DNA of 64,000 nt. It comes from Candidatus Bathyarchaeota archaeon (lineage in GTDB: Archaea; Thermoproteota; Bathyarchaeia; Bathyarchaeales; Bathycorpusculaceae). Under the pieces are notes generated by a model that saw nothing but the letters and a program-made list of their open reading frames with translations, made no database searches and had not been told where the DNA came from. Shown here in pieces: positions 19,251 to 52,897 of this stretch. The stretch lies in assembly GCA_963717465.1 (NCBI GenBank), contig OY970340.1, forward strand, positions 2,112,001 through 2,176,000, in the 5' to 3' direction. Position 1 is the stretch's first letter; the number at the start of each line of letters is the position of its first letter. The translations under genes and the position numbers were made by a program.

Positions 19251-19277
19251 TTGAAATGATGGATGGAGGGATTAGGA

Positions 19278-19892: not shown

Positions 19893-20093
19893 AATGAAAA
19901 TTCCCATGTTTTGTAAAAAGGTTTGGATTTGAGGCTTAAAATTTAAGCCTCTCGTTCGGACTCCTTCTCTTTTACACTAATTCTCTGATTCTCACACATA
20001 AAGACATACACAGACACACAATGGAGGAGGGAAAAGCACACAGAGGAAGGCGCCAGTTCATTGGTAAATTAGCTTTTTTCTGTTAATTTCTGC

Positions 20094-20339: not shown

Positions 20340-20374
20340 TCATCAAAAATGTCCATTGCAGCGCGCTAATATTC

Positions 20375-21403: not shown

Positions 21404-21814
21404 AGTCTCTCGCTTCTCTTTAACCCATCCGAAAAAATGCTTTGAATGTTATTTAAGCTTGTGCAGTATTGATCAATTTTTTAAATACTAATACAAAATA
21501 TTGATTAAAAGGTTTTGTTTTAATTCAATTTTTATTAAGCTTTTTTAATGAAAGCAACAATCATTGCTTATCCATGTTATTAGCTGTTAAACGGTTAGTT
21601 TTCCATTATTCGATTAAACATTAGCCTAAATAACATAAATTACATTTTTAATATGCTTAAGGCGTTTAATCTTAATGCAGGTCAATGGTTGCAATGGAAA
21701 AAAGATATCAGCATGCCGTTAAGGCGGAACAATCTCCTTTAAATAACCACTAGACGATTTGATAAAGCCTGTTAGATCATCTTTAATCAGGAGATTAATG
21801 GCGTGGGAATTCGG

Positions 21815-22624: not shown

Positions 22625-22707
22625 TTCTTAAATCTTGCTATCTGTTTAGCTCGCTAAGATAATCTAATGTTATAAATTGTGAATATGCAATAATTCTGCA
22701 GTATTTA

Positions 22708-24696
22708 TTATGTGTTTTCAAGTTCTAATACGACTACTTCAGGATTGTTCGTTGGTGACGAGTAAACTTTTGTTAACCCGTCTTCTGATGTCGTGTTTCC
22801 AAACAAGAATCGGTAGTAGACCGAGTTTTGCATATTACTAGGCACTGAAACTCCATTGCCGTAAGCATGCCCTAATGCGTAATTTGATATTGTTGGAAGG
22901 ATTGGTACTTCCAGTGTTGAGAAAATGATGTAGGTAGCTCCATATTCTTTCATAATTTGAACCGTTGTAGAAGTATCATTGGTGCAATAAGCTAATGCTA
23001 CGTCTTTTAGCTGGGCTGCTGTTTGCACTGAGCCGTCAAAAACAGGGGTTCTATACGCTATATCATCAATCCAATATCCATAATCCCACCAAGTCATAAT
23101 TGTTGCATTAGTTGGCGTATGCTGGTTGCAATAAATTAATGCGTTGTTCCAATTAGTATCGATCGACATTGGTCTGGCAGTTTCCATAGTAAAGCTCGCA
23201 AAAGAAGTTAGAATAACACCGATTAGAAAAATTGTAATCAAGATTTTGTCTCTGGCTCGGAATGTTCTGAATTTTAAAAACATGGGCACAAATATGAAGC
23301 TAATTAAAGCGGCTGCTGCTGGTGCCATGTCAGTAATGAATCTTTGGGCAAAGAAGGCTAAAATGAAAGTGGTAAGGAACCAGCCTAACCAAAAGAGGTC
23401 TCCTTCGCTGCGTCGTTTGAGGGCGACAACGAACCCTGAGAATAATGGGATTAGCAATAGAGCGTAGCTCCATAAGTTTCCACCTTGGCTCTGCACTAGA
23501 CCTTGTGCTTCAGCGGCAGTGCTTGTTCCTCCAACAGCAAATTCAGTCATACCCACCAGTAAAGAGAGCATGTTAGGGAGACTTATTAAAATCAAAACAT
23601 TAACTAAAGTTACAAATAGAAATAGCTTCCAATGTGTCTGTTTTGTCGCTTTGATAAATCTTTTAGGTATGGTTTTTAAGCCGCCAACCACGAATTTCGA
23701 ATTTATCCTAAGATGACTTATTTCTGTTGGATGGTAGCCTTTAAAAGCGCCCTGCGAAAAGTAGCTGATGAATTCAAAGATTAAACATCCAAATATAATA
23801 GCGAACATTAGGGGTGGTCCAGCATTCCACTCCCAGAAAAGTACCCCTTCTATGCCCAAGAAGGCTATTCCCGCTATTAACCAACTCAAATTCCACTTTC
23901 CAATATTAAAATGCCAATTTCTCTGCAAATAATACACAAAAACCCCAAGCATAATTAGCAGCATGCTTAGCGCGTCACGGGTAAGGTATCCTGAAGCCTG
24001 AATAAGATAATCTGATGGGATTATTGCCATGGAAAAAGCAGCAAAAACACCTATAATCCAATTGTGAGTTTTAGTGGCCATTGCAAACATCAATAAGATT
24101 GTAGCAACAGCTAACACTAAAGGCAATACTTCTCCTGCTAAAACTAAAGCGCTTGAAGTGGAAATGTGAAAAATGGAAACAAAAACTATTGAAGTGTAAG
24201 CAAGCGGATAAGCTAAGCCAGTTCCTAAAGTAGGAGCAGGAAAGGCAGTGCTTCCTGAAATGATTATTTCGGCCATTCGATTAAAAAGGTATGAGTCAGG
24301 ACTAATTATGTAGTAATAATTTCCATCGAGAAGATGCCCAGTTCGCAGAATAATCGCGTAGATAATGATGCCTAAAAGAGCAGCAACCAGCACTATCTTT
24401 CTGGGAGGATGCAAGAGTCTTCTTTTGTATAACTCGTTATTAATAGTGGCTTTTTTGGCTTTTAGTGCCTTAATTTGTTCAACAGTAGCCTTTTTGGCTT
24501 TTAGTGCCTTAACTTTCTCGATAGTAACCTTTTTATCTCTTAATGCCTTGGCTTTCTCAATAGTAGTCTTTTTGACATTTAGAGCCTTAATTTGAGCGTC
24601 TGTTTCTTTCAGTTGACTCTTAAGATCTTCATCTGAACGTTTTTCAAGCGGGATTTCCACTTCTTCTATAGAACTCTCATCTTCCTCGCCGCTCAA
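22708..24696 (-). CDS. AglB/STT3-like oligosaccharyltransferase, copy 1
   Basis: Multi-TM body, SPDSY, GYLTRD, AAEAQ, QRF and IMTWWDYGYWI motifs. Confidence 0.8.
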   Translation of the reverse strand: MSGEEDESSIEEVEIPLEKRSDEDLKSQLKETDAQIKALNVKKTTIEKAKALRDKKVTIEKVKALKAKKATVEQIKALKAKKATINNELYKRRLLHPPRKIVLVAALLGIIIYAIILRTGHLLDGNYYYIISPDSYLFNRMAEIIISGSTAFPAPTLGTGLAYPLAYTSIVFVSIFHISTSSALVLAGEVLPLVLAVATILLMFAMATKTHNWIIGVFAAFSMAIIPSDYLIQASGYLTRDALSMLLIMLGVFVYYLQRNWHFNIGKWNLSWLIAGIAFLGIEGVLFWEWNAGPPLMFAIIFGCLIFEFISYFSQGAFKGYHPTEISHLRINSKFVVGGLKTIPKRFIKATKQTHWKLFLFVTLVNVLILISLPNMLSLLVGMTEFAVGGTSTAAEAQGLVQSQGGNLWSYALLLIPLFSGFVVALKRRSEGDLFWLGWFLTTFILAFFAQRFITDMAPAAAALISFIFVPMFLKFRTFRARDKILITIFLIGVILTSFASFTMETARPMSIDTNWNNALIYCNQHTPTNATIMTWWDYGYWIDDIAYRTPVFDGSVQTAAQLKDVALAYCTNDTSTTVQIMKEYGATYIIFSTLEVPILPTISNYALGHAYGNGVSVPSNMQNSVYYRFLFGNTTSEDGLTKVYSSPTNNPEVVVLELENT
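24444..24590 (-). repeat. 39-bp (13-aa) degenerate coding repeats, KKxTIExxKAL
   Basis: KKTTIEKAKALRD/KKVTIEKVKALKA/KKATVEQIKALKA/KKATI. Confidence 0.75.
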
Positions 24697-25514: not shown

Positions 25515-26492
25515 ATGAATTTGAAGAAAGTTTTGATTACTGGTAGCGAGGACGCCCAAGTTTTGGAAGCTAATAAAGGTGGTTTGCTTGTTGTTGCGGG
25601 TATTCCAGCATATAATGAAGAAAAAACCATTGCGCAGGTTATATTGGTTGCTCAAAGATATGCTGACGTTGTGGTTGTTTGTGATGATGGGTCATCTGAC
25701 TTAACGGGAGAAATCGCAAGCAAGCTTGGAGCGGTCGTTGTACGCCACGAGAAAAATCGAGGTTATGGGGCAGCTTTGCAAAGCCTTTTCAAGAAAGCAA
25801 AAGAATTAAATGCAGATGTTTTGGTTACTTTAGATTCGGATGGGCAGCATGATCCTGCTGAAATTCCGCGACTAGTAAAGCCCATCGAAGACGGGTTTGC
25901 GGAGGTTGTTTTGGGTAGTCGATTCATGGATGCGAAAGGGTCTGCTGACATGCCTGCCTATAGGCAATTGGGCGTGAAAGTTATTACTAGGTTAAGTAAT
26001 GGGTCCGGGAAGAACGCTGTCAGCGATGCCCAAAGCGGTTTTAGAGCTTATAGTAAGGTTGCTATGGAAAAGTTAAGTGGTATATATGAAAATGGTATGA
26101 GTGCCAGCATAGAAATTATCCGTGCAATTAACAAAAGTGGGTTGAAAGTTTATGAGGTTCCAATTTCTTGCAGTTATGGCGATGTGGTAGGCGTGAAAAC
26201 TTCAACAGAAAATCCGTTTAGACATGGTGTAAGTATCATTATGTCAATTGTACGGCTTGTGGTCGAAGATAGACCGATAACATGCTTAGGAATACCTGGG
26301 ATAATGTCACTAGTGGTAGGTATTTTTTTTGGAGTTTGGATGCTAAATCTATATGCACTTGAAAATAGAATAGTAACAAACATAGCATTGGCCGCTATTT
26401 CTTTTATTTTCATAGGTTTCTTCTTGATGTCTACGGCTATCATGTTATACGGGATGGCACGTCTCAGCCAAAAAATAGCAAAAAATCAATAG
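25515..26492 (+). CDS. GT2 glycosyltransferase, dolichol-phosphate glycosyltransferase (DPM1-like) with 2 C-terminal TMs
   Basis: IPAYNEE, DDGSSD, NRGYG, LDSDGQH, DAQSGFRA. Confidence 0.9.
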   Translation: MNLKKVLITGSEDAQVLEANKGGLLVVAGIPAYNEEKTIAQVILVAQRYADVVVVCDDGSSDLTGEIASKLGAVVVRHEKNRGYGAALQSLFKKAKELNADVLVTLDSDGQHDPAEIPRLVKPIEDGFAEVVLGSRFMDAKGSADMPAYRQLGVKVITRLSNGSGKNAVSDAQSGFRAYSKVAMEKLSGIYENGMSASIEIIRAINKSGLKVYEVPISCSYGDVVGVKTSTENPFRHGVSIIMSIVRLVVEDRPITCLGIPGIMSLVVGIFFGVWMLNLYALENRIVTNIALAAISFIFIGFFLMSTAIMLYGMARLSQKIAKNQ

Positions 26493-26529
26493 GCTAAACT
26501 TATATTTTATTTTTTTAGCGAAGTTCAGG

Positions 26530-27523
26530 ATGGGCATTAACTATTCAAAGCGAAAAGCCAAGTCGTCCTTCAATTTCAGTTGTCATTGTGGTAAAGAATG
26601 GAGAAAAAACCGTTCGTGAGTGTCTCGATTCAGTATTTGATCAGGATAGACTTGATGAGACTTTTGAAGTTATTGTTGTGGACGGAGGCTCTACAGACAA
26701 AACTCTGACTATTGTCCAAAATTATCCCATTCGGATTATCGTAGAAAATGGCGGAACAATTGGTCACTGTAGAAATCTTGGCGTTCAAGCTTCTTTAGGT
26801 AAATACATTGCGTTTACTGATTCGGATTGCGTAGTTGCAAAAGACTGGCTAAAATCTCTTCTTTTTGAGTTGAGAAGTAAGCCTGATATTGTAGCTGTTG
26901 GTGGTCCCAATTTGGTGCTTGATTTGGATTTCCCTTTAAGTAAAGTTATAGGGTACATGCAAGGAACCTTTCTTGGCTCAGGGGGGTCGCCGCAGTCTTA
27001 TAATTTAAAAGATTTAAAATATGTTTATTCTCTTGCTAATTGTAATGCAATGTATAGAAAAGAAGTTCTTCTTAAAGAAAGCTTTGATGACTCGTTTAAT
27101 GTTGGCGAAGATTTGGAGCTAAACTTTAGGCTTTCGCAAAAAGGGTGCTCTTTTCTTTATCTCCCTACCGCTGTAGTATGGCACAAGCGACCGAACGGCT
27201 TTCACAAATTTTTCAATAAGATGTTCATTTATGGCAAGGCGATGGCTGAAGTGTGTAAAAAACATAAAAAGTTGGTTCGACTTTATGCTCCAGTTCCATC
27301 CCTTTCCTTTATTGCCTTGCTTGCTATGCTTCTTTCTATCAGCCTTTTTCCGGTAATGGCATATGTAGTCTTAGGTGCGCTGTTAATTTACGTTGGAATT
27401 TTATTTGCCTGTACTATTGAGGTACACTCAAAATTTCGTAGTAAAGCATCCATGCAGGTGATTTTTCTTTTGCCCCTTCAGCATATAGGATATGCTTTCG
27501 GTTTTTTAAAGGGTTTACTATGA
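26530..27523 (+). CDS. GT2 glycosyltransferase with C-terminal TMs (start uncertain; possible extra G after ATG at 26530)
   Basis: ISVVIVVKNGE, VDGGSTD, RNLG, FTDSD, GEDLE. Confidence 0.88.
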
Positions 27524-27550
27524 AGTTTTCGATAGTGTGGAGGATACAAG

Positions 27551-28594
27551 GTTACGACTTCTAAACTTGCATTTGTCAGTGTGGTAGTGCTTAATTACAA
27601 TGGCAAACCCTTTCTCGACAAATGCTTCACTGCTCTTTCACGATTAAGCTATCCTGCTTCTCTTTATGAAGTTATAATGGTAGATAATGCATCCACAGAC
27701 GGAAGCGTTGCGTATGTACAAAAATTCTATCCCTCGGTGCGTATTTTATCTTTAAACAGAAATTTGGGTTATACAGGCGGAAATAATAAGGGAGCTGAGG
27801 TAGCAAAGGGCGACTTGATAGCTTTTCTTAACAGCGACACTTCTGTGGATAAAGATTGGTTGAGTGAATTGGTTAGTGTTTTGATTAAGGATGAAAGAAT
27901 TGGGGTTTGTGGTAGTAAGATAGTTTTTGCTGAAAGCAACGAAATTCAGTATGATGGCGGTTTTGTAAATCTTATGGGGAGTGTTGTTTTTCACCCAGTG
28001 CAGAAGAGGGCTGTTGATGGCTTTTATCTGGTTGGTTCAATTTGTGGAGCTGCCTTCCTAATTAAAAAGAAAATACTTAAGGAATTAGGTTACTTCGATG
28101 AAGATTTTTTTATGTATTCAGATGAAAGTGACCTCTGTTTGAGAGCATGGCTTTATGGTTACAGAGTTGCGTACGTTCCTAGTTCAGTTATTTATCATTA
28201 CAGCGGAGGCTCCCAGTCAGAATTCAGCAACGAAAAAAACTTGTTGACCGCTCGATTAAGGTCTGATATGACTATTTTTCATGGAAACAAGAATTCATTG
28301 TCTTCGATTATAAAAAATTTTGAGCCAAAGCAAATCGTAATCGGCACTTTGGTTTCGTTCTTTTACATTTTCTTCCAAAATCTAATGTTGCTAAAAAATT
28401 CAGAGCCTAAAAAAATTAAGCTTTTAATTTCAGCCTCCATATGGCCTATAAGGCACTTTAGATTGCTGTGGAAGAAGCGTTTAATCATTCAGCGAAAGCG
28501 AATAGTGAGTGACAAGTGGCTTCTTGGAAATGGGTTGTTAATTTCAATGCATAATACTTTAATTTTACTTTTAAGAAGTCGATCCAATGTTTAA
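27551..28594 (+). CDS. GT2 glycosyltransferase (start uncertain)
   Basis: FVSVVVLNYNG, VDNASTD, NLGYTGGNN, FLNSD, FDEDFFMY. Confidence 0.88.
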   Translation, partial: VTTSKLAFVSVVVLNYNGKPFLDKCFTALSRLSYPASLYEVIMVDNASTDGSVAYVQKFYPSVRILSLNRNLGYTGGNNKGAEVAKGDLIAFLNSDTSVDKDWLSELVSVLIKDERIGVCGSKIVFAESNEIQYDGGFVNLMGSVVFHPVQKRAVDGFYLVGSICGAAFLIKKKILKELGYFDEDFFMYSDESDLCLRAWLYGYRVAYVPSSVIYHYSGGSQSEFSNEKNLLTARLRSDMTIFHGNKNSLSSIIKNFEPKQIVIGTLVSFFYIFFQNLMLLKNSEPKKIKLLISASIWPIRHFRLLWKKRLIIQRKRIVSDKWLLGNGLLISMHNTLILLLRSRSNV

Positions 28595-28670
28595 TTGAAA
28601 TGGGAAAGTCAATTACCTGATATTTCCTCAAAATATTACTCAATTTAACGCGCTTTTAGACTAAAAGCTT

Positions 28671-29300
28671 CTAAAGATTTTTTGCAACCTTTATGAAGTT
28701 GTCAATGTCATGTGACAGCATAAAAGGAAGCATTCTTTTCACTTTATCGTCGGGCCAATCCCACCATGAAATTCTTAAAAGATCGAGGATTTGTTCAGGC
28801 GAAAAACGATACTTGATGATTTTTGCAGGATTACCTCCAACTATGGCGTAGGGCGGGACATCTTTTACTACAAGAGAATCCATTGCTATGACAGCTCCAT
28901 TTCTAACCGTTACACCTTGCCTTATAGTTGTTCCATTGCCAATCCAGACGTCATTATTTATTATGATAGGTGCTGCTGGAATTTTAGAAGCGTCTATGAC
29001 TCCCTTATTATAATATGGATTCGCTGGCGTGTCTGTTTGCCACTTTTTATAAAATTCAACAAAAGGGTAAGTTGTTACCAAATCATAATCATGCTTTCCT
29101 AAAAATGCAAAAGTGATGTTCGAGCCAAAAGAACAGTATTTGCCTATCCTACTGCCGCTCATAAGATACGGAAGCCAAGGCATATAACCTGCAATCTTCG
29201 GTTGTGGACCATAGGAATGTTTTCCAAATACTATTTTGACCCCCGGCTTTTTGTTTTCAAGTTCTATTAGATAACGACCCAAACGAGCTAAACTTGACAA
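28671..29300 (-). CDS. CatB/Vat-like hexapeptide-repeat O-acetyltransferase
   Basis: IGKYCSF, NDVWIG, DVPPYAIVGGNPAKIIKYRF, WWDW. Confidence 0.9.
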   Translation of the reverse strand: MSSLARLGRYLIELENKKPGVKIVFGKHSYGPQPKIAGYMPWLPYLMSGSRIGKYCSFGSNITFAFLGKHDYDLVTTYPFVEFYKKWQTDTPANPYYNKGVIDASKIPAAPIIINNDVWIGNGTTIRQGVTVRNGAVIAMDSLVVKDVPPYAIVGGNPAKIIKYRFSPEQILDLLRISWWDWPDDKVKRMLPFMLSHDIDNFIKVAKNL

Positions 29301-29886
29301 GACTTATTCTCCTTCCATTAAGTCTGATGCATGCTATTACTTTTTTGAGTTTCGGTATATGCTTTTTAGTTTTTTAATTTTTACTTACAGCGTGCTAAAA
29401 AGTGACCGAGTAAGATATTTTCATCCGTTTGGTTGATGTCAACCTAAACATTTTCCCTTTTTATTGGAGGCTCATTTGTTGGAATTTAGTAAGGATTTTG
29501 TCATTAAATCTTTCCGACCTCGCAAACATAGATCATGAAGCGACAAGGGAAAACACTACGAGTTATCCAAAAAATCGCAAAAAATGGACGCAATAAATCT
29601 GTTCTCATATTTATTTGAAATCCATCGTAATTTAACTGGTAAGGATTAATTAGAATTTTTAAAACGATTTAAAAAAGTATATTTTTAAACATATTAAATT
29701 TCAATTGAATTTCAATTCTTATTAATAATATTTTCTAAGATAAGATAGCATATCAGGCTTAGAAAACTCTTAAAAAGCACTTGATTGCCAATTAAGTAGG
29801 AAGCTAAAACGGCAAGGTTGAAGGCTAGTTTAAGACGCTCATAATATTATCGAAAACCGAGAAATTGAGGTGGAAAAACGACTGAG

Positions 29887-30981
29887 TTGAAACGTAAAAA
29901 AGGATTAGCTTTTCTTTTTGATCGTTCAGTTAAAAAAATACGACAAAACGGGTTTTCTGGATTATTTTCTTATATTTCTGACCGTATTAGCAAAAATGTC
30001 CAAAATAAGTTGGCTTTTTATGGTTTTGGCACGCCAAGGCTTCAGATGGTATGTCTCGAGTTGACTAGTGATTGTAATTTGGGTTGTAAGATGTGTTTTT
30101 CGGCAAAGTATAGGGAAACAAATAAGCCCAGATATATTAAACTTGAAGATTGTAAACGTATTTTGAATGAGTTGGCCCTGCTTAAATGCTCCCTCGCCTT
30201 AAATTTTAGCGGTGAAAGTACGCTTCATCCTGATTTCAAGGAAATTATTAAATATGCTAGTAGTTTACGGTCTTTAGGTTTAAAGAGTGTAGGTTTCATC
30301 ACTAATGGCATGTTGTTTGATGAGGAAATAGCTAAGGTATGTGTTAAGGCTAAGGTTGATAATATCACTTTTAGCTTAAATGGTATCGGCAAGGTTAATG
30401 ATGACTGGCGTGTTGGTGCTGATTACCAAGTTATCTCGGATAATATTAAACAACTTATCAGTTTAAGAGACAAAAATACTGTTCCGCGAGTGGAGATTAA
30501 TCTTATTGATTTTGGCAATAAACAAGCAAATAATGAGTTTTTGAAGGCTTGGTTGCCGATTGTAGATGCCATTGAAGTTTCGCCTTTGCAGAATCCGCAG
30601 AGAAAAACGGCTTATGATAACTTTTTTGATGATTCAGAATTTTGTTCTGTCAAGGTTTGTCCTTTTCCAAGTTATTTCATGGGTATTTTAGCTAATGGTC
30701 AAGCGACCACCTGCTGTGCTGATGATAATGCTGAGTTGAATTTGGGGAATGTTATTGAAACTTCAGTTAAGGATGTTTGGTATAACACAAAATATTCTTT
30801 GTTAAGACGGAATCTTAGGAAAGACAAGCCTTCGGGGATTTGTTGTGGTTGTAATTTTTGGAGTAAGAAATTCATAAGTAAGATTAGTATCACTTCTGAT
30901 TTTGAGGTTTTGTACAGTGATTGGTTCAAGTTTTATTCAAAGCATTATGGAACTCAAAATGACAAGGAGATAAAAAATTAA
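29887..30981 (+). CDS. Radical SAM/SPASM domain protein
   Basis: CNLGCKMC, SGESTLHPDF, ITNG, CPFP...CC.D...LGNV...C.GC. Confidence 0.9.
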   Translation: MKRKKGLAFLFDRSVKKIRQNGFSGLFSYISDRISKNVQNKLAFYGFGTPRLQMVCLELTSDCNLGCKMCFSAKYRETNKPRYIKLEDCKRILNELALLKCSLALNFSGESTLHPDFKEIIKYASSLRSLGLKSVGFITNGMLFDEEIAKVCVKAKVDNITFSLNGIGKVNDDWRVGADYQVISDNIKQLISLRDKNTVPRVEINLIDFGNKQANNEFLKAWLPIVDAIEVSPLQNPQRKTAYDNFFDDSEFCSVKVCPFPSYFMGILANGQATTCCADDNAELNLGNVIETSVKDVWYNTKYSLLRRNLRKDKPSGICCGCNFWSKKFISKISITSDFEVLYSDWFKFYSKHYGTQNDKEIKN

Positions 30982-31297
30982 GTTTAATAGTATTGCGTTG
31001 CGTGTAGCAAGCTTGCCCTTGGTAAAAACAATTTTTCTTTTCTTCATTGTCTTGTTCTAAAACATGCATTTGTTTTCTTGGCACGTTCCAAGTTTATAAA
31101 TTTTCAAGCGAAGATTTAACTTTGCTAATTCCAATTCGCTATCAACGACTTTGTACACATTGAACAATTCGCTGATTTTGCTTTGTTGAAAAAATCTTGT
31201 TTGTTAATCGTGTTGATATTTTTTTGAAACTAGATGTCTTGAGGCTGCCGATGGGTCCTACTTATTTAGGATTTCTTTCTTCTTGTGCCCGATGGTT

Positions 31298-32095
31298 TCA
31301 TGATTTAATTTCAATTTTTCTGCTTGTTTCTTTTGTTAATCCGCTTTTCAAATCACGGTACTTCAATCCTTTCAAATGCTCCAATACAAAAGCTAAATAA
31401 TGATAATAAGGGAAATACTTAGTTAATAATTTGTTAAATGCTTGCTTGCGTGCGGCTTCACTGTTGACACTTTTGCCATGAAGACGATAAAGATGCAAGG
31501 GTTCTCCGACGCTCAAGCCGCAGAATCCAGCCTTCAAAGCGCGAAGACACCAATCATAATCTTCGCATCCGTCCAATGTTTCATCTAAGCCGCCAACTTC
31601 ATTAAAAACGTTTTTAGGAATTAAAGCTGCGCCTAGTTGACCGCCTACATAACGCCAGCCTAAAAGCCACGTTATCTTCGACATGCTAGGCAAATCTACA
31701 AGTGATTTGTCGCCGAAACCTTGAAAGCCTGTCCATACGAATCCGACTCTGCTATTATTCTTTTCACTTAAGTAACGATTCAGGCAAGCTTCAACATATC
31801 GCGGTTTAAGTTTGTCGTCCGCGCCTAAAAATATGAGAAATTTGCCATGTGCAAGCGTTGCGCCGAAGTTACTTGCATGTGCAGGAGTTCGCTTGCCCTC
31901 ATGTTTAATACGAACATAGGCAACGTCACTATAACGCTTTGCTACTCTTGCGATGTCCTCAGTGCTCTCATCATCCACGACTATCAATTCAACATTGTGA
32001 TAAGTCTGAACTTGCACACTGTCAATCGTTTCCATTAAATAATTAGCATAATTAAAAGTTGGAATAATAACAGAGATTAAAGGCTTATACTGCAT
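31298..32095 (-). CDS. GT2 glycosyltransferase
   Basis: ISVIIPTFN, VVDDESTE, FLGADD, CEDYD. Confidence 0.9.
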   Translation of the reverse strand: MQYKPLISVIIPTFNYANYLMETIDSVQVQTYHNVELIVVDDESTEDIARVAKRYSDVAYVRIKHEGKRTPAHASNFGATLAHGKFLIFLGADDKLKPRYVEACLNRYLSEKNNSRVGFVWTGFQGFGDKSLVDLPSMSKITWLLGWRYVGGQLGAALIPKNVFNEVGGLDETLDGCEDYDWCLRALKAGFCGLSVGEPLHLYRLHGKSVNSEAARKQAFNKLLTKYFPYYHYLAFVLEHLKGLKYRDLKSGLTKETSRKIEIKS

Positions 32096-32303
32096 TGTGT
32101 TCTTGGAATGGATGATGTAAATTTCCCCCTCAAGCGTTTAATCACTCATTAATCAGTAAATCTCGTTGCAAAACTCATTATAGAACGTTGCGATAAACGA
32201 CGAGATATTAAAAAAGTCGAAGAAAAACGGTTTTTCCGAACGACTTAATAATTATAATAGACTAATGAAGTTACAAAAAAATGAACATCCGCAGTGATAC
32301 CTT

Positions 32304-33238
32304 TTGCCACTAGTGAGCGTTCTAATGCCTTCATATAATCATGGAAAATACCTCTCAGAAACTATTGAGAGTATTCTCAACCAAACCTTTCAGGATCTTG
32401 AACTGATAATTATCGATGATTTCTCAAAAGATAATTCAAAAGCCATAATCGAAACATACCAGGAAAAAGATGGACGAATAAAGGCTTTTTTCCACGAAAA
32501 AAACATCGGCATAACACCAACAACAAATGAACTCATAGCAAAATCGTCAGGTAAATATATCGCCCGAATCGACTCAGACGACGTTTGGATGAAATCAAAA
32601 CTTGCAAAACAATTAGCCATACTTCAAAAGAATGAATCGCTCATCGTCTGGTCTGAAGGCGAAGTAATAGATGAGAAAAGCAAACCTACAGGGAAAACAT
32701 TCTCACAAAGACTAGCAGCTCTCACAAGAAGAAAAGCGGCAACATCTTTGCAGAATTGATACATGATAACTACATTTTGGGGTCAAGCCTAATTTACAAT
32801 CGATCAAGCGCTGAAGGCCTTCGCTATGACGAAAAATTGCGATACGTTAGCGACCACAAGTTTTTCGTAGACTTAGCCCGCCATCATGATTATTTTTACA
32901 TAAAAGAACCTTTAGCGCAATACCGGATTCACCCCAAAAACACTATATCTAGCGACCGCAAGGGCTTAGGTATTGACGTAACCGCCATTAACGAGTACTT
33001 CTTGAAAGCATATGGCAAAGAACTACCCAGAGCAATACAGGGCGCACTTTACTTCAACCTAGTTAAAGCTCACTTCGCTACCGGAGACAAGAAATCAGCC
33101 AAATACTTCTTAATAAAAGCAATAAAATGCAACTATATTCAATTTCAGATAAAATCCGCATTCGCTCATCCTAAGAACAGCCTAATAATCATCCAACAGC
33201 TCTGCCTCTTAATCAGGAATTCTCGACTTAAAATCTAA
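32304..33238 (+). CDS. GT2 glycosyltransferase (frameshift near 32720)
   Basis: VSVLMPSYN, IDDFSKD, IDSDD. Second ORF 32756..33238 supplies SDHKF and EPLAQYRIH. Confidence 0.85.
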
Positions 33239-39961: not shown

Positions 39962-40846
39962 GTGGATTCATTGCGACTTTTCAAGTTTTCAAGACCGACT
40001 CTTAGTAGAGGCAAAAAAGAGAAATTGCCGGATGCCAAGCTTCAATCTGATTCTAAAAAGCTTCAATCTGATTCTAAAAAGATTAATCAGTTCAAGAAGA
40101 AATCCAATATTAAAGCTTTAATGAAGATGTTTAACACGTCTCCGAGAGTTGAAACACGCGTTGAAGCGGTTAAGGCTTTAGCTGAAATTCGTAGCGTAAA
40201 GGCGCTTCTTGCCCTCCATGGGCTTTCTAACATGCCAATTTATCCTTATTTGCATGATGAAATCCAAGCTCAGCTATCACTGGCTATGGATTCTTACAAA
40301 CAATCACAACGCACGCCCATGATAGTAAAAGGAAAAGGTCGTTTGGGTGGTTTTGCTTTTTGGAGGAAAACAGTGTTAGGTCAAAATATAGTGCAGCCTG
40401 CGCCGCATCCTGTTGATTCTGAGTCGATACAAGCTGAGCCCGTTAAAGAGGAGAGTCGTTTAAGTCGTTTTGCGTTTTGGAAAAAAATAGGCTTAGGTCA
40501 CAAAATGTCAAAGCCTAGTGTTTCTGAATCTGTACAGGCTGAACCGGCTAGAGTGAAGGGTAGTTTGGGTCGTTTAGCTTTCTGGAAAGGATTAAGGTCG
40601 CGTCAAAAAGTGTCTCAGACTGTTGAATCCGCACCATCCCAAGGTAAGCTGGCTAGAGTGAAGGGTAGTTTGGGTCGTTTAGCTTTCTGGAAAGGATTAA
40701 GGTCGCGTCAAAAAGTGTCTCAGACTGTTGAATCCGCACCATCCCAAGGTAAGCTGGCTAGAGTGAAGGGTAGTTTGGGTCGTTTAGCTTTCTGGAAAAA
40801 GTTGCGGTCACGTAGTAAGAAGGCAAAGGCAGCAAAGAATACATAA
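39962..40846 (+). CDS. Basic protein with a HEAT-like helix pair and five 'RLAFWK'-type repeats
   Basis: TRVEAVKALAEIRSVKALLAL; FAFWRK, FAFWKK and LAFWK x3. Confidence 0.75.
   Translation: MDSLRLFKFSRPTLSRGKKEKLPDAKLQSDSKKLQSDSKKINQFKKKSNIKALMKMFNTSPRVETRVEAVKALAEIRSVKALLALHGLSNMPIYPYLHDEIQAQLSLAMDSYKQSQRTPMIVKGKGRLGGFAFWRKTVLGQNIVQPAPHPVDSESIQAEPVKEESRLSRFAFWKKIGLGHKMSKPSVSESVQAEPARVKGSLGRLAFWKGLRSRQKVSQTVESAPSQGKLARVKGSLGRLAFWKGLRSRQKVSQTVESAPSQGKLARVKGSLGRLAFWKKLRSRSKKAKAAKNT
40546..40798 (+). repeat. Perfect 105-bp tandem repeat, about 2.4 copies (35-aa unit)
   Basis: GGCTAGAGTGAAGGG starts at 40546, 40651 and 40756. Confidence 0.95.
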
Positions 40847-41121
40847 TTTACAGGTTGAGTGTTCAAGCCAGTACCTTTTGTATTGTTTGTGCTATTTGTT
40901 TGGGAAAACTTTTGTTTGCGAAAGCTTTTTATGCAAGTTGGCATTTTATTAGCCAAATAACAATCCGCTTGCTTGAATATTGTGAACTAAAGTAACATTT
41001 GATACTAGTTATTGCTTATTAATTGCTTTTTGATGTACCTATTTTTCTAGTATTGCGCCAACGGGAGCAAGAATTAAATGGGAGTGGCGCAGAATTAATT
41101 AAGAGAGAGGGTAAGGGAACA

Positions 41122-41514
41122 ATGTCTTATGGTACAAAAACAATAAAGGGCGCGGCAGAAAATCTAAATAGTTTTGCAAATGTACTGATGTCACAGTTAA
41201 CTGTTGTAGGTCTCAAGCCTAAGCATGAAATTACTAATTTAGGCAATTGCTTTAGGCTTGGTCGTGGGCTTGTGATGGTTGGGGTTACTGCTCGAATTTA
41301 CTATAAAGTGGTTGGAGATGATATTGTTGTTACGCCTGAGATTACGAGGTCATTTTGGTATAACTTCCTTCTTCCAATCCTGCTTTGTATATTATTCGTA
41401 GTTCCTGGAGTAATATACTATATTTGGACAAATAGGAATATGAGTAGAGCAATTGCAAGGGTATCTTTCGCTATTGAATCTTCGATGTCAATGTATAACG
41501 ATATCAACGGTTAA
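41122..41514 (+). CDS. Hypothetical membrane protein
   Basis: ATG after a purine-rich RBS; C-terminal hydrophobic FLLPILLCILFVVPGVIYYIW. Confidence 0.7.
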   Translation: MSYGTKTIKGAAENLNSFANVLMSQLTVVGLKPKHEITNLGNCFRLGRGLVMVGVTARIYYKVVGDDIVVTPEITRSFWYNFLLPILLCILFVVPGVIYYIWTNRNMSRAIARVSFAIESSMSMYNDING

Positions 41515-41548
41515 ATCTTCCTTTTAAGGGTGTATAAGTCTGGGAAAT

Positions 41549-41995
41549 TTGGAAGATGGTGTTAAAGAGGACTCTCTCTCTTTTCTTGTGCTGTCCCATC
41601 ACACCAGGGCTAATTTGAATAGAACCTGGAAACTGCGTGTTAGAGGAAAGGACTTGTACATTTGTTCCAGATGCACGGGGGTGGCAATTGGGTTTGTTGC
41701 CGCCTTGTTATTTAGACAAGCGGTATTATTATTTTCTCAAAATTCCATATTGCTTCTTGCACTTCCAGCTTTTGCAATGGCTGATTGGGTTCTGCAGACT
41801 TTAAAATTGCATGAAAGCAAAAATCCGGTGAGAATAGCGTCTGGGTTTTTTTTAGGATTATGCTGGGCAAGCATGTTTTATCTGCTCTTCTTTGACTGGA
41901 CCAATATCATGCTGTGGATTACGGCAGTTTTATATGTTGCAGTTTTTGTGGTAGTTTTACCATTTCGGATGAGACAGATGGGAGGAAAGTTTTGA
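41549..41995 (+). CDS. DUF2085-like membrane protein
   Basis: HH....RT, ICSRCTG, P...DW.LQ, ESKN.VR..SG..LG. Confidence 0.75.
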   Translation: MEDGVKEDSLSFLVLSHHTRANLNRTWKLRVRGKDLYICSRCTGVAIGFVAALLFRQAVLLFSQNSILLLALPAFAMADWVLQTLKLHESKNPVRIASGFFLGLCWASMFYLLFFDWTNIMLWITAVLYVAVFVVVLPFRMRQMGGKF

Positions 41996-43742
41996 GCAGA
42001 AACGCTAAAAAGAGTTCAAACGATGAACTCCAAGGCAAACAAGGAAAAGTTGAGACTAAAATTGGGGAACCGCGAAAGGTTGCCTTGATTGTTGCATTAT
42101 GTATTATAATTGGTTATGCTGTTTTTTTGAGAGCTTGGCATCTTTTGGATACCAATTATTATTATATTATTGGTCCTAACTCGTTTCTTTACAATAGAAT
42201 GGCTGAACTCATCATATCAGGGGCTCCTCCTCTTCCCATTCCTGAAGTTGCCAGCATCACGAGTACTGGTGGTTCTGGATTAGCTTATCCTCTTGCATAT
42301 ACTGCTTACATATTAGCCTTCATTTTTCACACTTCGACCACGAGTGGACTGGTGTTAGCTGGAGAAATCTTGCCATTAGTGCTAACTGTAGTGACTTTGC
42401 TGATTATGTATTTTGTTGTTTCTAAAACTAATAATCGGCTTGTTGGTGTTTCTTCAGTTCTTGCCATGGCAATTATGCCTTTAGTTTACCTGGTTCAGGC
42501 TTCTGGATATCTTGACAGGGACGCTCTGAGTTTGTTATTAGTTATGGTTGGAGTTTTTGCGTATTACTTCTTGAGAAAGTGGCATTTCAAGCGAGAAAAT
42601 CGTGATTATGGTTGGATTATAAGCGCCATACCTATTTTGAGTATTGAATACTTACTTTTTTCGGAGTGGAATTTTGGAGCATTTATCATGATTGCTATAA
42701 TTAGTGGAAGTTTTACCTCAGAGTTTATTGGCGACTTCCTGAAAGATTTTCTAAAAGGCTATGACAAAAAAGTGTTGCCGTATCTTTTACGAAGCCCAGA
42801 ATTCGTAGTTGCTGGTTTGGAAAAGGTGCCAAATCAGCGCGAGCGGCAATTAAGCAAGTGAATTGGAAGTTATTCGTTCTGATTATCTTGATAAATGTTG
42901 TAGTTGCAATAGTACTTCCCGACCCTTTTTCTCTTGCTACAAATATTGTGGCTCAAAATTTTTCTATAACTCTTGCTTACATAATAGCTGGTTGCCTTAT
43001 CCTGTGTATTCCTTTAGTGATTGGTTTCTTTATACCATTTATAAGAAGGAGTGAGGGAGACATCTTTTGGTTAGGCTGGTTTCTTACCGCACTTATTTTA
43101 TGCTTTCTTAATTCGGAATCACTTATTTTTCTAACACCTGCCGCTGCTGTATTAATTGCCTACGTAATCTGGCCTATTGGAAAATTCAAAACATTACGTT
43201 GGAAAGGAAAAACAGCACTTACGATGTTTATGATCATAGCAATTTTCATATCCATTTCAGCCTACGATGCCCCCCTAACGCAAGGCTCTCCAACCAATAA
43301 CTGGACTCAAGCGCTTGTTTGGTGTAATCAAAATACTCCAGCAAACGCGTCTATTCTAACCTTGCCGAGTTATTCCTATTGGGTTATAGATATAGCGCAT
43401 AGAACGCCCGTCTTTAGTTATTCAGGGCTAAATTCCTCAAAAACAAGCGATTTAGCATTAGCTTACTGTACGAATGATACTAGTACGACAATTCAAATCA
43501 TGAACAAGTATGGAGCGACGTACATTATTTTCTCAACAGATGAAGTTGCAGTTCTTCCACAGTTAACAAAACTGGCGTTTGGCCAATCGTATGGTAATGG
43601 GCAAACAGTGCCTGATAACATGATTAATTCGGTTTATTATCGCTTCGTATTTGGAAATGTTAGCTCTGATGATGGTCTGACCAAGGTTTATTATGCATCG
43701 CAAAATCAACAGGAGGTAGTAGTGTTAAAACTTGAAGCCTAG
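41992..43742 (+). CDS. AglB/STT3-like membrane protein, copy 2, degenerate motifs (frameshift near 42830-42858)
   Basis: Collinear with 22708..24696 (YYYII, GLAYPLAYT, QASGYL.RDALS, ALAYCTNDTSTT). WWDYG is replaced by LPSYS. Confidence 0.8.
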
Positions 43743-43915
43743 TATCAAATTGTGTAATGTTTGGAAGAAAAGAATTATTATGCTTATCAGAGTAAAGTGT
43801 ATAAGTTATTGGATAGGTAATATGTTAAAAGTAGTTCATGCATCGTGCTCGAAGCGTTGTGATTTGTTGCCGTTTGGAAGTGGGTTGGCTGAACTGGTAG
43901 ATGGAGTGAATAAAG

Positions 43916-44530
43916 GTGCCTTATCAGTTTAGTTTTGATATATCTCGTATTTCACGAAAATTGTTTCAGGAAATAGCTCTAATTGCGCAAGAGCGAAAAA
44001 CGCATATGGTAATTGGAGCTAAAACCGTCGCCCTTGCAAAACGGTTAAAACTTCTTGAAATAACAGGCTTAGATGTTACGGAAGCGGCCATTCTTCTCGA
44101 AGATCTGGTCGATATTTTTGCGAAGAATATTTCAGATAGACCATTGTTCGATAAGACGAATAAAAGAGTTCTCTTTCTATCGCATTGTTCAAGAAAATAT
44201 ATGGATAACCAGTGCAAAGCGCAATTTGATCCTAAAAAGACAACTTATGTTTGTGCTCATTGTTCCCCAGATTGCTTGATAAATCAATCGTGCGCACTGG
44301 GTGAAAAGAAAGGGTATGATGTCTATGTTGTTCCGGGAGGATCATGCATTCCTGGAATACTTAAGGCTGGAGGCTATAATGGGGTTGTTGGAGTTGCTTG
44401 TAGTCAAGAACTTAAAATGGCAAGCAATATCGTTGAAAAGATGAATGTTCATGGTCAAGGGATGCCTCTTCTTAAGAATGGATGCTGTAATACGCGGTTT
44501 AGTGTGGACAGTCTTGAAAAGATATTATAG
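43916..44530 (+). CDS. DUF116 family Cys-rich protein, copy 2
   Basis: Near-identical to 19278..19892 over its full length. Confidence 0.85.
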   Translation: MPYQFSFDISRISRKLFQEIALIAQERKTHMVIGAKTVALAKRLKLLEITGLDVTEAAILLEDLVDIFAKNISDRPLFDKTNKRVLFLSHCSRKYMDNQCKAQFDPKKTTYVCAHCSPDCLINQSCALGEKKGYDVYVVPGGSCIPGILKAGGYNGVVGVACSQELKMASNIVEKMNVHGQGMPLLKNGCCNTRFSVDSLEKIL

Positions 44531-44586
44531 GTGGGACATATTATGTATTCAATGGTATTGGAAGAGTGAGGGGGTAAAAGCAAGGT

Positions 44587-45291
44587 ATGGCTCTGAATAA
44601 AGCACTTGCTATTCTAGTCTGCTCTATATTTTTGTTATCAGCAATTGTGATGGTTGCTCCGGTTAAGGCTGCGCCATCGACTGAATCCAGTAGCGTTGCC
44701 AACTTTACTTTAACAGGGTGGGTTTGGGGACTTGATTATGCGCAGGATGGTATTGGAAATGCCACTCTAACTGTAACAAATGGTCAAGTAACTTATAATT
44801 CAAATACTCAGACGTGGAGCTTTAATTTTCCGAATTGCCAATTAACCTTCACCTTCGAAGATTCAACTACTCAAACTCCGGTGTCTCAAACGCTTACGAT
44901 TAACCTGGTGGGTTCTGAAACAGAATCCATTTTCCAACTGGGCGAACTTGATTATCCTACGAGCTCTAGTTTTTCAGGCGTATGGTTAAGTAGCGGTTAT
45001 ATCGCGATTATAGGTTATATTTATCTACCGCCTATCAGTGGTGGAGTTTTAAAATCTGCATCACCCTACTATTTTGCTATGAAGACACCAAATGTTAACA
45101 TTCCATTTTCTACTTCTTATAATAATGGTTTTGCTGGTGGTATAGATTCCATAATTAATAATAGCTTTATTTTAATTGATGAATTTGATAGTCAAGTATA
45201 TCAGCTGCGTGGAGTATTATCAAGCGTTCTATATGAACTGATGGTTCTTTTTTCAGGAGTACGCAACCTTATTACGCCATATATTCCTTAA
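44587..45291 (+). CDS. Secreted protein with beta-rich N-terminal domain and amphipathic C-terminal helices
   Basis: Signal peptide ending PVKA; sequons NFT, NAT, NNS. Confidence 0.8.
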   Translation: MALNKALAILVCSIFLLSAIVMVAPVKAAPSTESSSVANFTLTGWVWGLDYAQDGIGNATLTVTNGQVTYNSNTQTWSFNFPNCQLTFTFEDSTTQTPVSQTLTINLVGSETESIFQLGELDYPTSSSFSGVWLSSGYIAIIGYIYLPPISGGVLKSASPYYFAMKTPNVNIPFSTSYNNGFAGGIDSIINNSFILIDEFDSQVYQLRGVLSSVLYELMVLFSGVRNLITPYIP

Positions 45292-45430
45292 CAAATAACC
45301 TAAAATCCGTAACTTAATTATAAAACTTAAGTTGAAACTTAATATTTAATTTTAGACGTGTGCATAATTTTATATCTTAGCGCTTTTGCATCGCGCGCTT
45401 TCAGCAGTTGTTTTTCTTTTTTCTAAACGT

Positions 45431-45820
45431 TTACAGTAATGCTGTTGCTATCTCGGTCACTATGTGAATTATGAACTTTACTATAGTAACGGTACTCGCA
45501 ATGATAATGGGTATCCCGGTTACAATTCCTCCCGCTAATGTACTGCTGTTTCCAGCGTAATATATTGTATTATTCGCTGCATCAGCTGTCATGGATAGTA
45601 TGGGGCACGTAGATGAAATGTAAGCAGCTATACTTGCTGGGTAGGCCATTACGTAATTCAAGGCTACTAATGAGTTCATTACAAGAACTGATATTTCAGC
45701 AGGGGCATTCGCCATTATGCTCACACCGAGGGCGCTATTCGCAGTAAGTGAATTGCTTCCGATAGTTACTAAGTTGATCGTAAAAGCTATTAAGTCATTG
45801 AGAAAAGCTATTAGTGACGT
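45431..45820 (-). CDS. Small hydrophobic protein, paralog of 46394..46771
   Basis: Frame is open to 45820 (ACG where the paralog has ATG). Same upstream AGGAGGGAAGAATGAAAAA. Confidence 0.8.
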   Translation of the reverse strand, partial: TSLIAFLNDLIAFTINLVTIGSNSLTANSALGVSIMANAPAEISVLVMNSLVALNYVMAYPASIAAYISSTCPILSMTADAANNTIYYAGNSSTLAGGIVTGIPIIIASTVTIVKFIIHIVTEIATALL

Positions 45821-45945
45821 TTTTTCATTCTTCCCTCCTTAGTGCGCTAACCTCTTGCCATTGACCTCGCGTTTGAATATCCAAAAACAAAGCCTATTTG
45901 TTGTGCGCGCGCAAGTCATGAGGATAAAAAATATGGCTCATGATA

Positions 45946-46284
45946 TCAGGAACCTGTTAGAATATACGTTAAGATATTATTCATAACTGCGACGGTATTT
46001 TGTAATACGCCGGCTAAATTACTAGCCAGAGTTTGCCCAGGCGAAGTAAGGGTATTGCCATTAACAAATTGTGCAAGTACAGCATTTGCTAGCGTGAGCA
46101 AATAGTCCAAAAGAATTGTCACTTGCTTAATTAAATATGATGATTCATTAACCAGAATTTGCCCAGACGGAGTAAGGGTATTGCCATTAACAAATTGTGC
46201 AAGTACAGCATTTGCTAGCGTGAGCAAATAACTCGAAAGAATTGCAAATTGCTGATTTAAAGATGTTAAAGCTGCAGTACTCAT
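45946..46284 (-). CDS. Small hydrophobic protein with two 42-aa helix-LTPxG-helix repeats
   Basis: YLLTLANAVLAQFVNGNTLT x2; identical 60-bp blocks at 46045 and 46171. Confidence 0.8.
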   Translation of the reverse strand: MSTAALTSLNQQFAILSSYLLTLANAVLAQFVNGNTLTPSGQILVNESSYLIKQVTILLDYLLTLANAVLAQFVNGNTLTSPGQTLASNLAGVLQNTVAVMNNILTYILTGS

Positions 46285-46393
46285 TTTATTTCACTTCTTG
46301 TTTCTTCTCCGACTTAATAGCAAGTGTTACGAAAAAGGGGAATATTTGATATTTTCATCGGTTAGCGCATGCGCTATCCTTTTTTCTAAATGC

Positions 46394-46771
46394 TTAAATA
46401 ACCGTTGCTAGCCACTTCATTAAAGCGCTTAATACAGTAACGCAATTCCCCACGATACCGCCTATCCCGGTTACAATTCCTCCCGCTAATGTACTGCTGT
46501 TTCCAGCGTAAGCTACTGTATTATTCGCTGCATCAGTTGCAAAGCTGGGAACTGGGCACGTAGATGAAATGTAAGCAGCTATACTTGCTGGGTAGGCCAT
46601 TACGTAATTCAAGGCTACTAATGAGTTCATTACAAGAACTGATATTTCAGCAGGGGCATTCGCCATTATGCTCACACCGAGGGCGCTATTCGCAGTAAGT
46701 GAATTGCTTAGGATAGAGAATAAGCTGGCCAGAAAATTTACTAAGCTATTTGCTAGATCTATTAGAGACAT
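46394..46771 (-). CDS. Small hydrophobic protein, paralog of 45431..45820
   Basis: MSLIDLANSL...; 156-bp block 46554..46709 identical to 45603..45758. Confidence 0.8.
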   Translation of the reverse strand: MSLIDLANSLVNFLASLFSILSNSLTANSALGVSIMANAPAEISVLVMNSLVALNYVMAYPASIAAYISSTCPVPSFATDAANNTVAYAGNSSTLAGGIVTGIGGIVGNCVTVLSALMKWLATVI

Positions 46772-46993
46772 TTTTTCATTCTTCCCTCCTTTCATTTTTT
46801 TAACTCTAACTTGATTAGTTAGAGTTGACACGAATATACTTACATCAAGCTTTAAGTTATAAGCAGTAGGTAGTAACAAACGTAACTAAAGAATTTCCAA
46901 AAAAAATTCACTTTTCAAACTCAAAAAGTGGGATTTATGGCGTTCAACTCGAAAGCAAATTATTTAGCGGTTGAAATGTCACGGAAGGACAAT

Positions 46994-47776
46994 TTAGAAT
47001 TCAGTTTCTTTGCTGATTGCTTTCATAGCCTCTGACTGACGCCCTAAAGCTTTTTGGTTCCTCATTGCCTTCATCATATTGAGCTTTAGTTTAGCTTTCT
47101 GCGGGTTAATCTCACCTCTAGCTATACCCGCATGCATAGCATAAGTAGCGGTTGAACCGAACTCAGTTTCTTTATTACTAAGATCAGCTGCCTTAGCCTC
47201 GCTAACTGTTCCCTTCCCATTATCAAACTTCATCAGAAAAGCTCTCGGCTGCCCATCTGGACCCACAACATCAGAATAGACATACATAAAACTTGTAGTA
47301 AGCGCTGCTTTCATCCATTCTTGATCATTGTTTAACCAATCAGCCATTTTCTGATACCACTCCAATGTTCCAAATTTAAGCCGCATTTGAGTGGATTCCA
47401 TTTGAACAGGCTCTGCTGATGAAGGCTCAATTATGGCAGATTCCGCAAGATCGGGTTCTTTTGGAGTAGGTTCTGCTTGAACAGACTCGCCTTGAAAAGG
47501 CACCGTTAATGTTGGTTCTGTTTTAACAGCTGTTGGTGCAGATTCTGTTTTAACAGGTTCATCCTTTTTAAGCTCCTTTTTTTCTTCAAGGCTCCTTTTA
47601 ACATCACTTAAGGGCTTTTTGAAAATTGCAGTATTATTAACGCGAGTTCCAGATACTGTTGAAAAAGTAGCTATTAATTCCCAACCATCCAATCCAAGTT
47701 GTCTAAACTCTCTTTCATTTTCTTCCTGATACGAGTACGGTTTCAGTTTAAAAAATTTATATTGCCAACCTTTCAA
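46994..47776 (-). CDS. DUF4177-like N-terminal domain, acidic Pro-rich linker and SCP2 (sterol carrier)-like C-terminal domain
   Basis: WQYK...LGLDGWELI...IFKKP; KFGTLEW....D.LNND...GEINP..A.LK. Confidence 0.7.
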   Translation of the reverse strand: MKGWQYKFFKLKPYSYQEENEREFRQLGLDGWELIATFSTVSGTRVNNTAIFKKPLSDVKRSLEEKKELKKDEPVKTESAPTAVKTEPTLTVPFQGESVQAEPTPKEPDLAESAIIEPSSAEPVQMESTQMRLKFGTLEWYQKMADWLNNDQEWMKAALTTSFMYVYSDVVGPDGQPRAFLMKFDNGKGTVSEAKAADLSNKETEFGSTATYAMHAGIARGEINPQKAKLKLNMMKAMRNQKALGRQSEAMKAISKETEF

Positions 47777-52310: not shown

Positions 52311-52622
52311 TTACACCATTAACATCGCTGTCAGCACTTGGTTAATGAAGTACACTGTATTTTGCACCATAAGACTCAAACTACTAAGAAGACTTGCACC
52401 TGCAGGAGTAAGAGCACCCGTGCTAGGTACAACCCAAATCGACAGCAAACTATCCACAAGCGATAAAACAGACAACAACATCGTCGAACTCAAGTAGACT
52501 AACTGACTGCCAGCAGGAGTAAGATAACCCGTGCCAGGTACAACCCAGAACGAAAGGATACCATTCATGAGAACCATGATAGAAGATATCATATTTACCA
52601 TCTGAACAATTATAACCGACAA
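52311..52622 (-). CDS. Small hydrophobic protein with two 37-aa helix-LTPAG-helix repeats
   Basis: WVVPGTGYLTPAG / WVVPSTGALTPAG with a 111-bp DNA period. RBS AGGAGGG before TTG at 52622. Confidence 0.8.
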   Translation of the reverse strand: MSVIIVQMVNMISSIMVLMNGILSFWVVPGTGYLTPAGSQLVYLSSTMLLSVLSLVDSLLSIWVVPSTGALTPAGASLLSSLSLMVQNTVYFINQVLTAMLMV

Positions 52623-52897
52623 ATTTTTCCCTCCTAACACATTTTTAAGCGAACCAAGAAGCCTAAAATCTCTTCAAAATCACAAAAAAGGAAAGAAACA
52701 ATCTAACGACAAGTCAGAAAGCCTGATGTCACTTTTCACGTCACTTTTGCTGCGCGCGCACATTCAAGCCAGCCAAATCCATCCGTCATCCGCCGTATTC
52801 TTGACTTCCATCAGTTTTCGCCAATAAGGATGAGTAACACAGAATTATTAACATGAGTGACTGTGATAAGTCAGCAACAAAACTATTACTTCAATTG

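Follow-up and report, generated by a model that had tools for sequence, protein, structure and literature searches.

The stretch of DNA analyzed here, referred to as the window, comprises 64,000 nucleotides (positions 2,112,001 to 2,176,000 of contig OY970340.1) from the genome of a Candidatus Bathyarchaeota archaeon (GCA_963717465.1), an assembly that consists of a single contig of 3.05 Mb and is rated 88% complete. Segment 39962-47776 of the window codes for an AglB/STT3-like oligosaccharyltransferase (OST), a secreted protein with a predicted beta-barrel, and a small helix-loop-helix protein, called the hairpin. We found that these three genes are neighbors at many loci, including those of Dehalococcoidia-type bacteria, and the genomic evidence makes it very probable that they include a dedicated system for glycosylation of the hairpin loops. 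The broader explanation, in which the loops are N-glycosylated and the hairpins assemble into a filament or coat on the cell surface together with the barrel protein, is given an even chance. The first-pass annotation of this segment had proposed a dedicated AglB-type enzyme acting on small helical subunits. Neighborhood conservation across the two domains of life and sequon enrichment in the loops bear out this pairing, although the transferase of the segment itself is predicted to be inactive. All ORFs (open reading frames) listed in that annotation were found at their positions and on their strands. Its view of the operon as one module holds for the transferase, the barrel protein and the hairpin, but not for the DUF116, DUF2085, SCP2-like and repeat proteins.

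The transferase gene of the segment (forward strand) consists of two ORFs, an N-terminal half at 41914-42861 and a C-terminal half at 42858-43742, one base out of frame. The true start of the first ORF probably lies some codons downstream. The predicted proteins score below the Pfam cut-off (STT3, E 0.013), and the AglB/STT3 ancestry was established with a family profile. For the uninterrupted paralog at 22708-24696 (reverse strand), four full-length homologues were obtained after scoring 8000 candidates. A genome search with the alignment of these four gave 23 loci, eight of them close (28-34% identity), and all eight record titles name Dehalococcoidia, Chloroflexi or Chloroflexota. Overall, each genome record whose title gives a taxon belongs to Chloroflexota, in most cases to Dehalococcoidia. 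A wider alignment reached 77 metagenome loci, which carry no taxonomy. The clade profile spans both domains of human STT3A (E 1e-21) and A. fulgidus AglB (E 2e-18), and it places D134, D239/D241, E396, R452 and WWDYG of the family on the DXD, SVSE/TIXE, Arg and WWDYG motifs of STT3A. The roles described for these motifs are metal binding, amide activation, a phosphate site and the Ser/Thr pocket (available excerpt of PMC8342417). In the 79 full-length members, the catalytic acids and the Arg are near-invariant, as in AglB, STT3 and PglB (PF02516, TIGR04154). The exception is WWD, whose first Trp is Gln in 39 members and whose Asp is kept in 28. More than half of the clade has a Q-W-S/G-type motif at this place and keeps the catalytic Asp, Glu and Arg. 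Unlike the known enzymes, the clade members also score below the family cut-offs and adjoin their apparent substrates. Trees separate the clade from the housekeeping AglB of the host (support 100), and the window copies form a third lineage within it together with P0003 and P0004. The enzyme family itself is known, and this clade is a new branch within it. Examples of the Q-W-S/G type are found at L072, L075, L086, L108, L121 and L199, and tandem pairs of such enzymes occur at several loci.

The hairpin protein of the segment (45946-46284, reverse strand, 112 aa) is built of two tandem helix-loop-helix units that end in an L-T-x-x-G helix cap. Its AlphaFold2 model shows three long helices with short turns between them (pLDDT 73). 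A single-sequence search with this protein returned only itself. Of 15 hits in a search of representatives, P0027, P0028, P0032, P0033 and P0036 were dropped as spurious repeat or compositional matches. With an iterated profile, helix-loop-helix genes were detected in 46 of 85 loci, or in 45 of 83 after removal of two duplicate records, a set that still includes some near-identical loci. Where at least 3 kb of upstream DNA was available, 26 of 30 STT3-clade loci carried hairpin genes, compared with none of 59 control loci (407 kb). The profile matched the protein at 45946-46284 (E 6e-19), a stand-alone two-unit protein without loop sequons at 52311-52640 (reverse strand, E 9e-15) and, in a genome-wide scan, a secreted 342-aa protein at 20375-21403 (reverse strand, E 2e-9). 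The latter has a signal peptide, a beta-rich domain and C-terminal hairpin repeats, and it belongs to a second copy of the module (19263-24696). Both this copy and the gene at 52311-52640 had been overlooked in the first reading. In total, 117 unique hairpin units were collected. A locus often has two to four hairpin genes, which as a rule point away from the enzyme gene. The hairpin also forms the C-terminal end of large secreted proteins, such as one of 740 aa in L208 and one of 337 aa in L205. The helices are amphipathic, with a wide hydrophobic face, a narrow polar stripe and a median 19-residue hydropathy of 1.4-1.5; the stripe is conserved, with Lys at profile position 13 and Asp/Asn at position 19. 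At least two Cys residues are present in 35 of 96 units, and a crude pattern recognized a Sec-like leader in 10 of 87 hairpin ORFs. Because of this Cys content and these leaders, we infer that the hairpins are located outside the cell. Known families gave no counterpart. No Pfam family is common to more than one of 79 members, NCBIfam gave no match for the four small proteins of the window and two locus hairpins, and the ESM Atlas gave no usable match. Foldseek with the hairpin and barrel models returned nothing at E<=0.001. The absence of GvpA reported in the first-pass annotation was confirmed, as no Pfam gas-vesicle match was found for the window proteins or for 79 hairpin members at E<=0.05.

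A functional link is indicated by the sequons in the hairpin loops. Beside enzymes with a W-W/Y-D/E pocket, 32 of 38 hairpins carry a loop sequon (13 of 14 loci), whereas beside enzymes with a remodeled pocket only 5 of 42 do (3 of 25 loci). On the WWD side, the loops contain 62 sequons where within-loop shuffling yields 19.0 +/- 3.7, and none of 2000 shuffles reached as high a number; on the remodeled side, the six observed compare with 6.3 +/- 2.2. Since the loop sequons lie so far above the shuffles, the loops of the WWD clade are read as selected acceptors. When clade was ignored and whole units were scored, sequons were present in 50 of 96 units, only slightly more than the 41 +/- 5 expected by chance. 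In the genome of the archaeon, the loops of the 342-aa protein, next to the WWDYG-bearing copy of the enzyme, contain one and five sequons; the hairpin loops next to the copy predicted to be inactive have none.

The third component is the secreted protein at 44587-45291 (forward strand), which has a signal peptide. Over its full length it matches a protein of a Dehalococcoidia locus (E 7e-17). Its homologues, of which 21 are non-identical and many carry extra N-terminal repeat domains, recur in the same gene order across loci. Its AlphaFold2 model (pLDDT 69) shows an eight-strand barrel followed by two C-terminal helices. The best structural neighbor was VIA (Z 11.7, rmsd, the root-mean-square deviation, 3.2 over 124 residues), with small beta-barrels down to Z of about 9, and the top neighbors included outer-membrane barrels and avidin/lipocalin folds. 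An outer-membrane porin was considered and rejected, because the outward faces of the strands appear mostly polar in the alignment. Profile comparison did not link the C-terminal helices with the hairpins (probability 6%). From the model, we read the protein as a putative soluble minor subunit or adhesin.

The explanation that we prefer would operate as follows. The enzyme, the hairpins and the barrel protein are encoded side by side at many loci, and strong enrichment of loop sequons is seen only beside WWD-pocket enzymes. The hairpins would be inserted into the membrane or exported by Sec, with the loop outside the cell, and the enzyme would transfer a lipid-linked glycan onto the loop Asn. 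The helices would then pack laterally against each other, possibly together with lipid, in a process that would need neither an ATPase nor a prepilin peptidase. The barrel protein and the larger secreted domains that end in a hairpin would enter the structure as its minor subunits. For the archaeon, where the module is duplicated, glycosylation would be carried out by the copy at 20-25 kb or by the housekeeping AglB, which is encoded elsewhere in the genome (C1:159519). The enzyme at 41914-43742 would be a fold-retaining pseudo-enzyme that serves as a scaffold or chaperone.

Several observations weigh against this explanation. The association between pocket and sequons amounts to about one clade split, with three changes per trait; there are two independent pairs, the sign test gives p = 1, and where pairs differed, they ran contrary to the association. 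Loci L101 and L139 combine a remodeled pocket with sequons, and L076 has WWDYG yet no sequons. Where long upstream DNA was available, 4 of the 30 loci have no hairpins, and some hairpin genes are remote from every STT3 gene. Both loops of the hairpin at 45946-46284 lack a sequon; its NES sequon falls at a predicted helix start. The paralog at 22708-24696 has the first DXD Asp, the EL5 Glu, the Arg and WWDYG, but it may be impaired too, because Thr replaces D239 of the second DXD (Asp in 78 of 79 members). An assembly error is possible at this position, and P0003, which is 72% identical to the paralog, keeps the Asp. Fold searches with the hairpin list generic helical bundles only, and polymerization is a prediction.

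The hydropathy of the helices also fits membrane-spanning hairpins, as it exceeds 1.6 in 39 of 115 first and 33 of 113 second helices. This leads to the rival that survives best, in which the hairpins are ordinary two-pass membrane glycoproteins, dispersed in the cytoplasmic membrane as a dense glycan carpet or as anchors of surface domains, with no ordered polymer. It keeps the pairing of enzyme and substrate, and it agrees with the lack of a recognizable leader in most hairpin ORFs and with the absence of any Walker-A ORF within 6 kb in the 45 loci inspected, many of which lie on short contigs. In such proteins, however, the conserved polar stripe would cross the would-be membrane segment. 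Moreover, some tandem hairpin repeats carry sequons on consecutive loops, which a plain membrane-spanning topology would place on opposite sides of the membrane, and leader-bearing and leaderless forms likewise imply conflicting topologies. We regard this alternative as unlikely.

According to a second rival, the segment is a decaying duplicate island, in which a pseudogene of the enzyme lies among unrelated neighbors with no current function. The sequence of the copy at 41914-43742 gives this some support. It has Asn at D134, the first DXD Asp on EL1 (Asp in 78 of 79 members), and the second DXD is retained as D-R-D. E396 is replaced by Gln in a shortened EL5 (Glu in 79 of 79), R452 is replaced by Glu (Arg in 79 of 79), and WWDYG is reduced to Tyr, with loss of W537 (76 of 79) and G540 (79 of 79). 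Because the catalytic Asp, Glu, Arg and WWDYG are lost, the product is likely to be catalytically inactive. The AglB-like gene of the first-pass annotation is therefore present, but in two frames and without most of its catalytic motifs, in which it differs from the known enzymes. The frame break and the loss of five conserved residues both speak for decay, as do the scarcity of the module among relatives, described below, and the lack of a link to DUF116, DUF2085 and SCP2 elsewhere. The break itself, as located against the paralog, consists of one base in a short A run. When 450 ORFs were sampled across the genome, a frameshift was found to split 22 paralog loci, against 187 that are intact (about 10%), which makes an assembly error the probable cause of the break. 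Despite about 50% divergence from the paralog, the copy contains no premature stop and only this single 1-base break. Retention is graded by column conservation: among columns conserved at 90% or more, it matches 43 of 60 (paralog, 52 of 60), and among those conserved at 70-90%, 54 of 115 (paralog, 57 of 115). The barrel and hairpin genes are intact. This pattern points to a pseudo-enzyme under selection that has retained its fold, and decay of the whole island is considered improbable.

Comparison with known surface structures did not identify the module. It is neither a type IV pilus or archaellum nor a Ced/Ted system by leader and ATPase tests, because no ATPase is encoded within 6 kb in the 45 loci and no class III signal peptide was recognized by pattern in any of 87 hairpin ORFs. 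The archaellum resembles the module as surface machinery that has crossed between archaea and Dehalococcoidia/Anaerolineae (PMC12488501, as far as its available text goes). That text describes likely O-glycosylation, and the words AglB and oligosaccharyl are absent from it. A third rival takes the hairpins for pilins of a conjugative or Ced/Ted-like protein-lipid tube whose ATPase is encoded elsewhere. The hairpins resemble CedA1 and TedC, which are likewise small, hydrophobic and helical and in some cases, but not all, have a signal peptide (PMC9905601, available part). The module differs from them in having no neighboring VirB4/CedB ATPase, no PDB sequence match for the hairpins at E up to 10, a dedicated transferase, and hypervariable, sequon-rich loops. 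HerA/VirB4-type (DUF87) matches exist; in this genome they are distant from the module, and in five bacterial genomes they are either distant too or located on other contigs. This rival is very improbable. Very improbable, too, is the last one, which takes the hairpins for capsid proteins that were domesticated from a spindle- or rod-shaped archaeal virus: they share two hydrophobic helices and loop sequons at the turn, a generic feature, with the glycosylated capsid proteins of SMV1, SSV1 and APBV1 (excerpt of PMC10866085), but they occur in a cellular context as several divergent paralogs per locus with housekeeping genes as neighbors among the loci read, and the viral databases gave no match (at most 2 of 103 members hit any one PHROG family, nothing in BFVD at E<=0.001, and neither enzyme nor barrel found in IMG/VR contigs). 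The module fits no system tested. No published description of it was found in a search whose scope left subscription journals and supplements outside, and the literature searched contained nothing on Dehalococcoidia with STT3 or OST-type N-glycosylation.

The distribution of the module is uneven. Hairpins were found in 2 of 401 genomes of the host's class, 1 of 301 of its phylum, and 18 of 401 of the class of genome G061. The STT3 clade was detected in 1 of 301 genomes of the host's family, that is, in none of the 300 others. The only other hairpin-bearing genome among the 400 remaining of the host's class is G145, whose hairpin (G145:C318, L164) lies on a short contig and is either native or mis-binned. 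The co-occurrence proposed in the first-pass annotation was thus recovered in Dehalococcoidia-type bacteria, but not in the host's archaeal relatives. Judged from its genes, the module is shared across domains. By the trees, the transfer may have gone in either direction. Transfer of the archaellum between Archaea and Chloroflexota provides a precedent (PMC12488501, same available text).

Taken further, the data would tentatively define a new class of surface polymer in Dehalococcoidia and one archaeon, although we hold this with more doubt than confidence. It would consist of glycosylated hairpins that self-assemble with neither ATPase nor peptidase, with cargo borne on C-terminal hairpins and an OST of their own, accompanied by a sequon-independent OST clade. 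The latter is suggested because in that clade the Ser/Thr pocket is rebuilt, the catalytic residues are kept, and the hairpin sequons are lost. The module itself points to an uncatalogued envelope or appendage system of uncultured sediment Chloroflexota and one archaeon, for which concrete subunits can now be named. In the bacterial STT3 clade, the likely substrates are encoded right beside the enzyme. The non-WWD branch of this clade raises the question of whether an OST can act without Ser/Thr at +2, which, if true, would matter for glycoengineering. The transferase at 41914-43742 is a candidate natural pseudo-OST.

The remaining genes of segment 39962-47776 do not belong to the core. In the related loci, no homologue was found of DUF116, DUF2085, the 163-aa protein, the SCP2-like protein, or the small proteins A and C. 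The DUF116 Cys-rich protein (43916-44530, forward strand) and the DUF2085 membrane protein (41549-41995, forward strand) pass the Pfam cut-offs (E 1e-25 and E 5e-13, respectively), so these two labels stand. Neither was found in any of five hairpin-bearing bacterial genomes, all possibly incomplete. DUF116 is present in 54 of 60 relatives and adjoins TFB in many same-genus loci among the matches listed. It also adjoins both module copies in this genome (the second DUF116 copy, 85% identical, lies at 19263-19892, forward strand), which may reflect a local link. Among 60 relatives, DUF2085 was detected in 6; in one of them, where the module is absent, it is paired with a homologue of the small 163-aa membrane protein that is its partner here (41023-41514, forward strand). 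Both are passengers, and so is the protein at 46994-47776 (reverse strand), composed of a DUF4177-like N-terminal part, a Pro/Glu linker, and an SCP2-like domain. The SCP2 label holds only transitively, as the domain itself has no PF02036 match but three distant paralogs do. The genome shows an expansion of such proteins, with 11 PF02036 matches and about ten paralogs of the window domain.

The first-pass annotation had treated three small proteins as one group. Their low charge was confirmed, with 5 charged residues of 129 in protein A (45431-45820, reverse strand), 3 of 112 in the hairpin, and 4 of 125 in protein C (46394-46771, reverse strand), and so were their sequons (NNT and NSS in A and in C, NES in the hairpin). 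The grouping was not upheld: A and C are a recent tandem duplicate (74% identical as proteins, 89% DNA identity over 300 nt) with no outside homologue. The hairpin, a separate family, has a profile that does not match A or C, and profile comparison linked them neither to the hairpins nor to HP15, a second small hydrophobic family described below. Their composition and sequons are compatible with accessory glycoprotein subunits. At both start regions (45820-45828 and 46771-46779), an ATG with six As comes after a GGAGG and is shifted by one base relative to the ORF; for protein A, this upstream ATG is at 45828. Either the same homopolymer error occurred twice or the start is slippery.

The 294-aa protein at 39962-40846 (forward strand) had been labeled HEAT-like. 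Its N-terminal part has only a weak, sub-cut-off match (HEAT_2, E 0.0097), its C-terminal part contains basic repeats with Trp/Phe, and it had one weak match in the related loci. Downstream of the barrel gene, a membrane protein whose Pro-rich tail contains repeats of a basic, amphipathic kind was noticed at L051:493-1599, L139:14499-15698 and L198:12934-14097. Its repeats recall those of the 294-aa protein, and profile comparison gave no link between the two.

The cluster at 25515-33238 directly adjoins the near-intact transferase of the second module copy and could be the source of the donor glycan. We take its genes to be glycosyltransferase-like, with one acetyltransferase-like and one radical-SAM-like. 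Between DUF116 and the 342-aa gene of the same copy, a short stretch (20094-20339) is presumably a transposase-like remnant. Scans for promoters and terminators gave chance-level results only.

Near the hairpin genes at other loci, the barrel protein, a CFI-box-CTERM protein, and a repeat-bearing membrane protein were found, together with what we assume to be DUF4352-like lipoproteins. HP15 occurs among the hairpin genes of the non-WWD clade (L079:1737-1967, L082, L108, L115, L117, L119, L136 and L199), and profile comparison did not link it to the hairpins. A charge-poor ORF of 80 aa, predicted to be helical and not matched by the hairpin profile, is located at G000:C1:856398-856685. At L200:9628-11419, the gene that comes after a lone hairpin gene codes for a secreted protein with what we take to be a TasA/SipW-type leader.

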